This document shows positions 1,273-5,406 of a DNA stretch of 52,800 nucleotides, piece by piece (position 1 is the stretch's first letter; each line of letters starts with the position of its first letter). Both the position numbers and the translations under genes were made by a program. Origin of the DNA: Microcoleaceae cyanobacterium (GTDB lineage: Bacteria > Cyanobacteriota > Cyanobacteriia > Cyanobacteriales > Microcoleaceae); the NCBI GenBank assembly GCA_051652765.1, contig JBOFUV010000064.1, positions 1-52,800 of the forward strand. Reading direction: 5' to 3'. A model generated the notes under the pieces. The model saw nothing but the letters and a program-made list of their open reading frames with translations. It did not search any database and was not told where the DNA came from.

Positions 1273-1524
1273 TCAACTTTCACATCCCAAACCGTCCCTA
1301 TCCTTGTCAAGCTTGTGAGGATCGGGGGCTTTTACGACCACTGGGACATTGATACCCGCTCTTTCCTTCAGGTATTTACAATCGAGGTCTGGTGGTGGTG
1401 ATGGAATACAGATCTTTTTCCCGTTCACATCCTTTGGATAGGCTGGGTCGCAGTTGAGTTGAGCGATTAGGATTAAGAGTCTGGTGTCATAGGTCATGCC
1501 ATTTTGGTTTGATCCGTACCACAC
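1273..1524 (-). CDS. Small excalibur-like Ca-binding domain protein (start uncertain)
   Basis: CDPAYP...CIPSPPPDLDC...DPHKLDKDRDGLGCE matches the excalibur-type DxDxDGxxCE motif. Confidence 0.7.
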   Translation of the reverse strand: MWYGSNQNGMTYDTRLLILIAQLNCDPAYPKDVNGKKICIPSPPPDLDCKYLKERAGINVPVVVKAPDPHKLDKDRDGLGCES

Positions 1525-2729: not shown

Positions 2730-2926
2730 AAGAGGGTCTCCCGATGAAATGAGTGATGAATCCCAGAGAGTATTAGCACCCTGATTAATCCCGACTCTAG
2801 TTGTCTCCAGCCTTTTGGGACAGCCAAGTCAGATGGAGCATTTCTACCATCATAACCACAGAAGTAGGGCTGGCTACCACTCCTTTCGAGAACCTTGTGC
2901 AGTGACTGGAGAAGATTAAGCTAGAT

Positions 2927-3784
2927 TTATTGGTTTTGCTGAGCTTTTCTGAGGGCTTCTCCATACAGTTTTTCAGAAGCTTGATTCAGGGTTTCAATTC
3001 GTTGGGATTCTTCTGGAGTCAAGGAACGGTTTCCCATCATCGCTTTGGCTTGAATGCCCCGGACTTCCTCGTAGAGTTTGTGTCCCTGACTAAAGCGAGC
3101 CTCGTTAATCTGACTGAGGGTGAGTTGGATCTCACCAATATGTCCATTCGACAGTTTGACATTGAGGAGAATGTCTCGATATCCTCCGGGGGTCGGGTCA
3201 ATAAAGCGGTCTTTCATCCGCACCGCCTGAGTGCGATTAACAACAGTTTCTAAGGAATTATAAATTTCATCCAGGGAGTCATACTCCAAGGCTAAACGAG
3301 TCAGATCAGTAATTCTAGAAGCGTCTCCATCGTACTCCACCATGATTTTTTCCTGGGTTCGTTCCCGACCTTTGAGTCCTTCTGGGGGAAGAACCACCGT
3401 TCCTTGAGTCAGTTGAGCGAGCTCTTGGGCAATTTTCTGAAGTTCAACATCTGCAACTGCGGCAGCTTGATAGAGTTCATCTAAGTCCTTGCTGGTTTGA
3501 TACAGTTTTTGCTGCGGAACCTGGGCTTGAACCCGCTGGCTGATCTCTACATACTTTGAGTCCAATGCATCAGGCGTTGCTTGAGGTTCATTGGCCTGAC
3601 GCTCAACCGTTGCTGAACGTTCAACTGCATCGGGTTGAGGAGAGGTTGCTACAGTTTGGGACGCGGTGGACTCTGTTTTAGCAGTTCCAGGCTCAGTTTG
3701 CTTTGGAGCCGTCATCAACGCAGTGCAACTGGAGGATAGCAAAAGAACTGTGGTCAAAATCGCAAATTTCCGAAGTCTATTCAT
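2927..3784 (-). CDS. Putative lipoprotein with RelA/SpoT-like synthetase/nucleotidyltransferase domain
   Basis: Signal peptide ending LSSSC (Cys20) and a low-complexity linker, then LKGRERTQEKI, ITDLTR, KDRF, GGYRDILL and GEIQL, resembling Syn1-Syn4. Confidence 0.75.
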   Translation of the reverse strand: MNRLRKFAILTTVLLLSSSCTALMTAPKQTEPGTAKTESTASQTVATSPQPDAVERSATVERQANEPQATPDALDSKYVEISQRVQAQVPQQKLYQTSKDLDELYQAAAVADVELQKIAQELAQLTQGTVVLPPEGLKGRERTQEKIMVEYDGDASRITDLTRLALEYDSLDEIYNSLETVVNRTQAVRMKDRFIDPTPGGYRDILLNVKLSNGHIGEIQLTLSQINEARFSQGHKLYEEVRGIQAKAMMGNRSLTPEESQRIETLNQASEKLYGEALRKAQQNQ

Positions 3785-4177: not shown

Positions 4178-4390
4178 CTACTCTCTTAAGGGTATCCAAA
4201 ACCGATAAATTCCAATTGAGAAAAGCGTGAGAATTAGCTGAACTGTTTCTGATGCCCAGCTTAATCCCCATAAAAGCTCGATCATTCCAGTCAAGAGAAT
4301 GGCAAGGCGATAAACTTCTTCTCTGAGCTTAATCCCCAACCAAATTGTTCCAGCGCCAAGGGCAAACAGTGCTAAGTCAGTAATAAACAT
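4178..4390 (-). CDS. Small hypothetical membrane protein
   Basis: 70-aa hydrophobic ORF with ATG start. Confidence 0.6.
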   Translation of the reverse strand: MFITDLALFALGAGTIWLGIKLREEVYRLAILLTGMIELLWGLSWASETVQLILTLFSIGIYRFWIPLRE

Positions 4391-4734: not shown

Positions 4735-5406
4735 TTACTTTTGAGTTTCTTCGGTCTGGAACTGGCAAATATATTTCGGAGTGATGGGGCAGGTTTTGTC
4801 CGCAATTGGATTCCCCCGCAAAAACAAATAGGTTAAGCTCCCGAGAGGCTTGAGTGAGCTAATACTGGTAATTTGATTGTTATTTAAATTCAGTTCATTG
4901 AGGTTTGACAGCGCATTCAGCGGTTCAACATTGGAAATGCTGTTGTAGCTGAGATTGAGTAATTTAAGATTCTTCAAGGATTGCAGGGGCGTAACATCGG
5001 CGATCTGGTTGTAACTCAGGTCAAGCACGACTAACTTCTTTAAAGATTTGAGGGAATTCAGATCAGAGATTTGGTTGTTGATCAGGCGGAGAACGGTCAA
5101 GTTCTCTAGGGATCGTAATGGAGCGAGATCGGTGAGCTGACTCGTGCTCAAATCCAGTTGCGTGAAGCTTGATAATTGTTTGAGAGCGCGATCGCAATCG
5201 TAAGTTCCAACCTGTTGCAAAATCACACTAACAGTGCGCCTTGTGACTTCTGGTAAACTCTCTCGCTGCAAACACCACTCCATAAAACCTTTTGGGGCTG
5301 CTGTTTGGGGCTCTACTGATTCAGCCAGTGTAGGGGATGTTGCTCCGCTCAGAACCCATGCCAACCCTAAGGTTAACCCGTAAAATATGATATCTTCTCT
5401 GACCAT
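4735..5406 (-). CDS. Secreted leucine-rich repeat (internalin-like) protein
   Basis: Signal peptide, 22-aa LRRs (LxxLxLxxNQIxDxxxL), C-terminal Cys cap. Confidence 0.88.
   Translation of the reverse strand: MVREDIIFYGLTLGLAWVLSGATSPTLAESVEPQTAAPKGFMEWCLQRESLPEVTRRTVSVILQQVGTYDCDRALKQLSSFTQLDLSTSQLTDLAPLRSLENLTVLRLINNQISDLNSLKSLKKLVVLDLSYNQIADVTPLQSLKNLKLLNLSYNSISNVEPLNALSNLNELNLNNNQITSISSLKPLGSLTYLFLRGNPIADKTCPITPKYICQFQTEETQK

Follow-up and report, generated by a model that had tools for sequence, protein, structure and literature searches.

Exported alarmone synthetases (EAS) are orphan proteins with a signal peptide ahead of a SYNTH (pyrophosphokinase) domain, which make up 252 of 1,369 homologues and come mainly from Streptomyces, Vibrio, and Shewanella (Ahmad 2025, PMC12691689). 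They are harmless when exported and lethal without the signal: signal-less SaEAS, VpEAS, and RelV are strongly toxic, whereas full-length VpEAS and VcRelV have no effect on growth (PMC12691689). Apk1 (Tas1), SaEAS, VpEAS, and AaEAS are active synthetases, and the assayed signal-peptide members SaEAS and VpEAS use ordinary nucleotides; among the assayed Sec-type EAS, one is released to the medium and one is presumed periplasmic (PMC12691689). Mislocalised SaEAS is degraded, secreted SaEAS has no effect on B. subtilis or other Streptomyces, and the role of the class was left open as either an extracellular signal or sensor, or a toxin re-entering other cells (PMC12691689). Jimmy et al. described Tas1 as a divergent homologue of the RelV subfamily (PMC7229694, in part). 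The relV gene of Shewanella is induced by peptidoglycan damage, overexpression of the full-length protein slowed growth, and RelV was found as a ppGpp source in cells lacking RelA and SpoT (bioRxiv 10.1101/2023.05.05.539549, in part). Here we describe a related gene in a 52,800-nucleotide (nt) stretch of DNA from a Microcoleaceae cyanobacterium (positions 1-52,800 of contig JBOFUV010000064.1, assembly GCA_051652765.1), referred to as the window. The open reading frame (ORF) at 2927..3784 lies on the minus strand, with its ATG at 3784 and its TAA at 2927, the plus strand there being interrupted by stops, and its 285-aa product is referred to as P0001.

We conclude that P0001 is probably a lipid-anchored exported alarmone synthetase, namely a protein predicted to be exported and lipidated, with an intact pyrophosphokinase whose activity is likewise predicted, and with export in place of an immunity protein. 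By sequence and modeled structure it combines the features that define EAS computationally: a SYNTH domain homologous to that of Apk1, an export signal, the catalytic residues, and an orphan gene. An earlier reading of the window (the sequence-only reading) regarded an extracytoplasmic location as surprising, which no longer holds now that orphan RelA/SpoT homologues with signal peptides are a published class (PMC12691689). Three features appear to be unreported: the anchoring by lipid that is predicted for P0001, its orphan group in cyanobacteria, and an acceptor pocket like that of Apk1. Cyanobacteria are unmentioned in the main text of PMC12691689, as are lipoproteins, the lipobox, and signal peptidase II. 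The part of its lists covered here has two _9CYAN entries, one labelled DUF4157 and the other with a similar N-terminus; the cyanobacterial taxon names searched are absent from that part, and lipoproteins may sit unlabelled among the 252. Among literature titles and abstract openings outside subscription papers, we found no cyanobacterial or lipidated small alarmone synthetase.

The RelA/SpoT-like synthetase domain proposed in the sequence-only reading was borne out by modeling. The AlphaFold2 (AF2) model of residues 71-285 has a predicted local distance difference test score (pLDDT) of 97, and Foldseek ranked Tas1, SaEAS, and RelP first (6ox6, E=5e-10; 8vx3, E=3e-7). VIA-align gave Z 16.0 both to Tas1 (6ox6; root-mean-square deviation, rmsd, 2.6 over 165 residues) and to RelQ (5ded), and Z 13.8 to SaEAS (8vx3; rmsd 3.0 over 166 residues). 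Tas1/Apk1 (6ox6) was also the top PDB sequence match (E=1e-7), and a 99-sequence profile matched Tas1 (5e-22), B. subtilis RelP (4e-10), RelA, and Rel, with a weak match to SaEAS (0.017). The Pfam RelA_SpoT family gave no match to P0001 at E<=1, and Pfam, NCBIfam, and PADLOC as a whole had no real match; in the ESM Atlas only unnamed clusters were found at 0.90-0.91, together with one at 0.89 that has RelA_SpoT on 34% of its members. Taken on sequence and model, P0001 is a small alarmone synthetase of the RelV/Apk1(Tas1) type.

Residue roles were taken from PMC12691689 and PMC13710873, conservation was counted over 186 aligned domains (P0001-P0185 and P0207), and Apk1 numbering is the chain number +21, a deduced offset that reproduces R330, N370, and E382 as cited. 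The motifs named in the sequence-only reading (KGRERTQEK, DLTR, GGYRD, and EIQL) are present at residues 138-146, 160-163, 200-204, and 218-221, respectively. The catalytic and ATP-binding set of SaEAS (D121, R124, K154, E182, and Q184) is kept in P0001 as D160, R163, K191, E218, and Q220, K191 being equated with K154 by spacing and profile alignment; an Ala mutant of SaEAS D121 is inactive (PMC12691689). D160 is found in all 186 domains, followed by E218 (185), K138 (184), Y202 (183), K146 (179), R142 (172), K191 (160), R163 (157), and Q220 (157), and the His of GHKLYE is conserved in 160. The ratio of nonsynonymous to synonymous substitution rates (dN/dS) of the domain is 0.10 for the window against its homologous locus L004; three further pairs give 0.18-0.23, and the fifth pair is saturated. 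The linker preceding the domain has a ratio of 0.55-1. With this constraint, the fold, and the kept catalytic residues, the synthetase looks intact and under purifying selection, and activity is predicted.

The sequence-only reading also pointed out that Syn3 lacks its His and argued from this for an unknown substrate. The observation is true, the site being Leu206, but it is not distinctive, as the site of RelP His155 has Asn in Apk1, SaEAS, and the Vibrio/Shewanella proteins and Gln in AaEAS. The absence of this His is, judging from the alignment, the normal state of the subfamily, and SaEAS and VpEAS use ordinary nucleotides; an unknown substrate therefore cannot be argued from it. Leu206 aligns with SaEAS N169 and Apk1 N370 and is Leu in 125 of the 186 domains, and Asn208, two residues further on and kept in 155, may stand in for the active-site Asn.

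The signal peptide with Cys20 and the flexible linker of the sequence-only reading were both found, with MNRLRK as the n-region, residues 7-19 as the h-region, and a 55-residue linker that is 73% S/T/P/A/Q/E. A PROSITE-like lipobox pattern matches 46 of the 3232 ORFs of at least 150 aa in the near-complete source genome (1.4%; genome G000, in which the window contig is C64). It matches Cys20 in the three same-genus orthologues P0001, P0002, and P0003, in each of which this is the only Cys, and P0229 (51% identical) likewise has a sole Cys, Cys22 in LLGC. Between P0001 and L004, the nonsynonymous rate (dN) is 0.27 in the signal peptide versus 0.86 in the linker. That reading had also suggested looking for an export signal in homologues, and by pattern and conservation one is present in all 14 full-length proteins of the close cyanobacterial group, P0001 included. 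P0001 is thus a probable lipoprotein, with lipidation predicted at Cys20.

The gene neighborhood was characterized at six distinct loci, namely the window and L004-L008. The proteins of L015-L017, L019, and L020 are identical or almost identical to theirs, and these five were left out of the count. Neighboring genes of the six loci differ between genera. In the window they encode an NAD-dependent epimerase, YggU/DUF167, a 70-aa membrane protein, and a leucine-rich-repeat protein, in agreement with the earlier statement that no hydrolase or antitoxin gene is adjacent. No same-strand ORF of at least 40 aa starts between -30 and +150 nt of the P0001 stop. Such an ORF lies just past the stop in one of the six loci (L004), as a TTG frame overlapping a NUDIX gene; the NUDIX gene was rejected as a partner, as it is not beside the gene in the other five. 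Genome G000 encodes a long Rel and a 193-aa stand-alone HD_4 small alarmone hydrolase next to smpB (L014:1378-1959 on contig G000:C1), unlinked to the synthetase.

Instead of standing alone, two toxin-type synthetases, one cyanobacterial with a core of the extracellular contractile injection system (eCIS) (L002) and one from Chitinophaga (L011), are both followed by a small protein, the two being 43% identical. A family model (pLDDT 90) placed Tis1 (6ox6_B) third of 48,161 chains, a weak match (Z 4.1, rmsd 3.7, 63 residues), and Foldseek found no match for the L002 protein. The Tis1 hypothesis had been named beforehand, and by the model the family is weakly Tis1-like (for Tis1, see PMC11782079 and PMC10083569, both in part). 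A hidden Markov model (HMM) of this family matched at none of the six loci, with a best E of 0.15 in G000, although divergent immunity genes could escape it. Among five other carrier genomes it matched in one (G420), unlinked to the synthetase. By sequence, the P0001 gene is an orphan without adjacent immunity. Two side observations concern this family: the L011 protein has a C-terminal extension faintly like the C-terminal hairpin of the synthetase (tblastn E=0.012 to L005), and the orphan Tis1-like gene of G420 (L035:1489-1719 on contig G420:C125) lies 6 nt behind a gene for a 452-aa exported protein with S-layer-homology-like repeats, as judged by eye. Table 1 gives the coordinates of these features.

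Table 1. Features of the synthetase gene, its product, and related loci (feature, position in the window unless a locus is named, strand, remark)
P0001 gene, lipobox-bearing RelV/Apk1-type alarmone synthetase (EAS candidate)	2927..3784	minus	285 aa
Signal peptide, residues 1-19	3728..3784	minus	n-region net +3, hydrophobic 7-19
Lipobox Cys20 (L-S-S-S-C), predicted diacylglyceryl attachment site	3725..3727	minus	sole Cys of P0001
Low-complexity linker, residues 21-75, putative weakly constrained tether (predicted disorder)	3560..3724	minus	dN/dS about 0.55-1
SYNTH (pyrophosphokinase) domain with C-terminal helical hairpin, residues 76-283	2936..3559	minus	AF2, Foldseek, VIA-align
Syn1, K138-x3-R142-x3-K146	3347..3373	minus	Apk1/RelV type, not RxKxxxS
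Syn2, D160-L-T-R163	3296..3307	minus	equivalent to Apk1 D327/R330, SaEAS D121/R124
G-loop/Syn3, T198-P-G200-G-Y202-R-D-I-L206-L-N208	3161..3193	minus	without equivalents of RelP K147/N149 and His155
Syn4, E218-I-Q220	3125..3133	minus	equivalent to Apk1 E382/Q384
G234-H-K-L-Y238	3071..3085	minus	Gly at the site of guanine-contacting RelP Glu189
70-aa membrane protein, upstream of the P0001 gene	4178..4390	minus	syntenic in 3/3 same-genus genomes
Tis1-like family members behind toxin-type synthetases	L002:2298-2516 (72-aa), L011:5655-6074		

In RelP, guanine is contacted by K147, N149, Y151, A186 (backbone), and E189 (PMC13710873, in part). K147, N149, Y151, and E189 map to T198, G200, Y202, and G234 of P0001. 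The Glu189 site is Gly in Apk1 and Apk2-like sequences (the Gly before HKYYE) and Glu in the Vibrio and Shewanella proteins, and Ser and Glu are retained at the sites of guanine contact in Vibrio-type sequences, which are (p)ppGpp-specific. Glu at position 234 pairs with Ser or Asn at position 200 in 21 of the 22 Glu rows, as a raw count. The combination of L206 and G234 is the commonest state among relatives (105 of 186) and includes the immunity-paired toxin tip of L002. Because the pocket lacks the guanine-contacting side chains of RelP, we consider (p)ppApp or a mixture a somewhat more likely product than (p)ppGpp alone.

Searching cluster representatives, we found 3122 relatives of the domain at E<=0.001. 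Delivery-type domains are present in 12 of 53 long relatives, which were hand-picked (five eCIS core, two PT-HINT, and one each of WXG100, PAAR, VgrG-like, MuF, and type IX secretion system). In the RelV/VpEAS group, signal-peptide proteins from Enterovibrio and Shewanella share 36-38% identity with P0001. A 186-row FastTree unites twelve close-group proteins and a fragment in one clade (98), and a 49-row IQ-TREE does so for the eight members sampled there (100/99); with four rows added to the FastTree, the union of the lipoprotein and Cys-less cyanobacterial groups was unstarred and P0229 was not firmly placed. Elsewhere in the tree, signal-bearing stand-alone synthetases occur in Vibrionaceae/Shewanella, Pleurocapsa, and Deltaproteobacteria. 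The Vibrio/Shewanella and cyanobacterial groups are separate, well-supported clades whose union is not rejected (approximately unbiased test, p-AU 0.102), so that a repeated origin of signal-bearing orphan forms is only suggested; the proposal of an origin independent of Vibrio RelV was not upheld, the same value applying.

Several relatives are worth recording in their own right. P0207 (WP_019504790.1), from the cultured Pleurocapsa sp. PCC 7319, and P0079 represent a separately placed cyanobacterial signal-bearing synthetase with GDQLY for GHKLY, and the stop of the deltaproteobacterial signal-bearing homologues (L009/L010:4821-5672) overlaps a downstream ThiF-family gene. In P0094 and P0134 this type of synthetase is fused to an HD_4 hydrolase, with NUDIX as well in P0134. 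The public annotation of P0238 and P0186-P0201 is often 'phosphoribosylglycinamide formyltransferase', apparently a propagated mis-annotation. Bordetella phage vB_BbrM_PHB04 is the only phage with a homologue in the annotated collection (two records of one phage; 32% over 54% of the query).

The gene is present in 3 of 401 genomes of the phylum: its own, one toxin-type, and one broken. Within the family, it was found in all three genomes of its own genus, in all four of genus g3 (two broken), in one of eight of g7, and in none of 79 of g2. By sequence comparison, the gene was lost recently in two of the four g3 genomes, and the broken remnants (L003/L022 in G172 and L021 in G412) keep the same upstream synteny as the intact L007/L008. 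No relative was found in two scans of metagenome contigs, and the neighborhood data therefore come from genome loci only.

In the mechanism that we propose, Sec would export P0001, a lipid would be attached at Cys20, and signal peptidase II would cut off the signal peptide, a route predicted from the conserved lipobox. The enzyme would thereby remain tethered on the far side of the membrane from the cytoplasm, most probably in the periplasm. The RelV/Apk1-type domain would then transfer the beta-gamma pyrophosphate from ATP onto a purine nucleotide at its 3'-OH, an activity predicted from the four assayed relatives, and the pocket would somewhat more likely yield (p)ppApp or a mixture than (p)ppGpp alone. 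Export would replace immunity, the orphan enzyme being toxic only if kept in the cytoplasm, as for SaEAS, VpEAS, and RelV. Because it would be tethered, the enzyme would act on the producer's own envelope, converting ATP/GTP leaked from damaged or lysed cells into alarmones. We tentatively suggest, as a possible role, that it is a damage-triggered signal generator or a nucleotide sink for leaked nucleotides.

A number of observations weigh against parts of this proposal. Extracytoplasmic ATP/GTP is scarce. The -3 residue of the lipobox is Ser, not the usual Leu, Val, or Ile, although Ser also occurs in 4 of the 46 pattern matches. A lipobox Cys is found in only 4 of the 14 close-group proteins, the other 10 having a basic and hydrophobic N-terminus without Cys (some with a VYA site, read by eye, that could be cut by signal peptidase I), and the anchor is therefore not a trait of the whole close group. 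At the Leu206 site, the residue is polar in each of the four assayed EAS/Apk enzymes examined (Asn in three, Gln in one), and we found no assayed enzyme with Leu. His235 is replaced by Tyr or Phe in P0003 and in the 10 relatives that lack Cys (P0003-P0011, P0052, and P0228 together). The product prediction is soft, because SaEAS prefers guanylates despite having Thr in place of the Glu, and because the 200/234 covariation does not reach significance once phylogeny is corrected for (5 pairs, median p 0.5). The gene is also rare, being found in 8 of 144 family genomes, two of them with a broken copy. As for the role in envelope stress that the bioRxiv preprint proposed for Shewanella relV, the gene failed to rescue tolerance in a 2026 paper, though it was still ampicillin-induced (PMC13712847, in part), and ppGpp-null V. 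cholerae has no penicillin-tolerance defect (PMC12909929, in part).

The rival that survives best, though we hold it to be unlikely, is that export itself acts as a switch: when Sec or lipoprotein maturation stalls (by envelope stress, phage, or loss of proton-motive force), the precursor would fold in the cytoplasm, make alarmone, and arrest or kill the cell, with the genome's Rel and unlinked small hydrolase resetting low alarmone levels. This would solve the problem of substrate supply and fits the toxicity of signal-less SaEAS, VpEAS, and RelV, the finding that G000 encodes, apart from its long Rel, an HD hydrolase of 193 aa, and the reports that RelV can supply ppGpp in cells lacking RelA and SpoT and that full-length Shewanella RelV slows growth when overexpressed (bioRxiv 10.1101/2023.05.05.539549, in part). 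Full-length VpEAS and VcRelV, however, do not affect growth, and mislocalised SaEAS is degraded. The five proteins scanned with PADLOC gave no match and no defence-island neighbours, and the internal Met24, which could serve as a cytoplasmic start, was rejected as a second start as it is not conserved.

Also unlikely, and ranked next, is a weapon, in which the toxin tip, presented at the cell surface or released with outer-membrane vesicles, would act inside competing or grazing organisms when these internalize vesicles or ingest filaments. Polymorphic toxins with a synthetase of this kind as their C-terminal tip are common among the relatives (the 12 of 53 hand-picked long relatives above), the patchy distribution and pseudogenes fit conflict genes, and the same-genus genome G420 holds an orphan Tis1-like gene elsewhere. 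P0001 itself has neither a delivery nor a translocation domain, and its predicted lipid anchor makes a diffusible colicin-like toxin less likely; on these grounds the exported effector of the sequence-only reading is weakened, though it keeps a small share of the probability. No kin-protecting immunity gene was found at the six loci, the Tis1-like family was not found in G000 or in four of the five other carriers searched, and secreted SaEAS does not affect B. subtilis or other Streptomyces.

Altered chemistry along the lines of the sequence-only reading, i.e., ATP-dependent pyrophosphotransfer to a non-alarmone acceptor (an RNA 3' end, a sugar, or an envelope component) or a low-activity nucleotide-binding protein, is improbable. 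Some toxSAS enzymes do modify tRNA (PMC12691689), and Leu206 at the His/Asn site, Gly200 and Gly234 in the pocket, and the change of His235 to Tyr/Phe in the sister group could be read in this way. The donor-site residues are intact, however, the L206/G234 state is the one shared by most relatives and by immunity-paired toxin tips (L002), and the match to the tRNA-modifying FaRel2 (Z 6.7) and CapRel (Z 13.1) is weaker than that to Tas1 and RelQ.

In other filamentous cyanobacteria the periplasm is shared along the filament. A filament-wide damage alarm can be imagined, in which a domesticated toxin tip, lipid-tethered in the periplasm, makes (p)ppApp/(p)ppGpp from the ATP set free when a cell lyses or is perforated by phage, and so warns or arrests neighbouring cells; we rate this speculative extension as quite improbable. 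Such a conversion of toxin to sentinel may have occurred repeatedly, because the tree places orphan forms with a signal among toxin tips at several points. Least probable is action in the thylakoid lumen, which cyanobacterial Sec lipoproteins can also reach (Psb27 and CyanoQ, dual Sec targeting being established), since no photosynthesis genes lie near the six loci, few cyanobacteria have the gene (3 of 401), and non-photosynthetic relatives share the design. The regulation of photosynthesis by ppGpp (PMC10107265, in part) would speak for it.

Around the P0001 gene, the 70-aa membrane protein is co-oriented with the synthetase in all three same-genus genomes (window 4178-4390 (-), L019:1229-1438, and L020:2730-2942), directly adjoining it in L019; in the window and L020, yggU lies between the two genes on the opposite strand. 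It belongs to an unnamed, widespread cyanobacterial family found in 37 of 144 family genomes, mostly without the synthetase, and a dedicated partner role is therefore unsupported. The synthetase gene is single copy, with one match in G000 by protein search and by HMM over six frames, and its GC content (47.7% versus 46.1% for the genome) gives no sign of recent transfer. A promoter scan found 4 sites versus 2.0 +/- 1.5 expected, none of them upstream of the gene on its own strand, and no terminator was found. A 55-aa ORF at 2797-2964 (-), overlapping the stop, was judged spurious and has no DNA similarity to L004 there. Two nearby genes are not beside the synthetase in other loci, namely a small ORF at 1273-1524 (-), whose C-terminus weakly resembles Excalibur (E=0.005), and, at 4735-5406 (-), the gene for a leucine-rich-repeat protein with a signal.

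If the interpretation of P0001 as a lipid-anchored EAS is correct, Sec-type EAS would be extended to cyanobacteria. An anchored member under purifying selection, without immunity or a delivery domain, would favor action at the producer's own envelope and would help to separate the two role models of EAS, outside signal or sensor versus re-entering toxin; as a tethered member would act only at its own envelope, the purpose of these enzymes would become directly testable. From the pocket, the use of an adenine or a guanine acceptor could further be predicted by sequence. These implications are bounded by the prior publication of the class, by the rarity of the gene, which occurs mostly in uncultured genomes, and by evidence that is computational throughout.

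Among known systems, RelP and RelQ share with P0001 the fold (Z 15-16), the catalytic Asp and Glu, and the G-loop Tyr. They are cytoplasmic, however, and their RxKxxxS Syn1, Syn3 His155, and guanine contacts K147/N149/E189 are not kept in P0001, for which a housekeeping RelP/RelQ function was rejected by Syn1/Syn3 type and guanine contacts. A toxSAS toxin-antitoxin module was likewise rejected, as no antitoxin or hydrolase is co-encoded and the genome's small hydrolase is on another contig. Apk1/Tas1, the (p)ppApp synthetase belonging to type VI secretion (T6SS; 6OX6), and the MuF-fused Apk2 have the same type of Syn1 and Syn2 and the Gly before HKxYE. They differ in having a PAAR or MuF domain, an adjacent Tis1 (and Aph1) immunity gene, and an insertion before GHKYYE, none of which is found in P0001; assignment to Apk1 (PAAR/T6SS) or Apk2 (MuF) toxins was rejected for want of an N-terminal PAAR/MuF domain and adjacent Tis1-like immunity. 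AaEAS, associated with the type VII secretion system of Amycolatopsis azurea, and the eCIS/DUF4157-fused EAS, among them two cyanobacterial entries of the PMC12691689 data set, have GYRD-x-x-x-N and NGH-x-x-E motifs nearly identical to those of P0001, whereas they have long delivery domains, a downstream immunity ORF, and no signal peptide. SaEAS (Streptomyces albidoflavus, PDB 8VX3) is exported, orphan, and toxic only in the cytoplasm, with the same fold as P0001, but it comes from a monoderm, which cleaves it and sets it free in the medium, is 14-19% identical, and makes both alarmones with a preference for G. The enzymes of EAS cluster B (VpEAS, V. cholerae RelV, and Shewanella RelV) have the same stand-alone SYNTH domain, N-terminal signal, and orphan gene, the same DLxR, GYRD, ExQ, and HxxYE motifs, and the same C-terminal hairpin. 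These enzymes lack a lipobox (none of three checked) and keep Ser and Glu at the guanine contacts, with (p)ppGpp as the only product of VpEAS, whereas P0001 has Cys20, a long tether, Leu206, Gly200, and Gly234.

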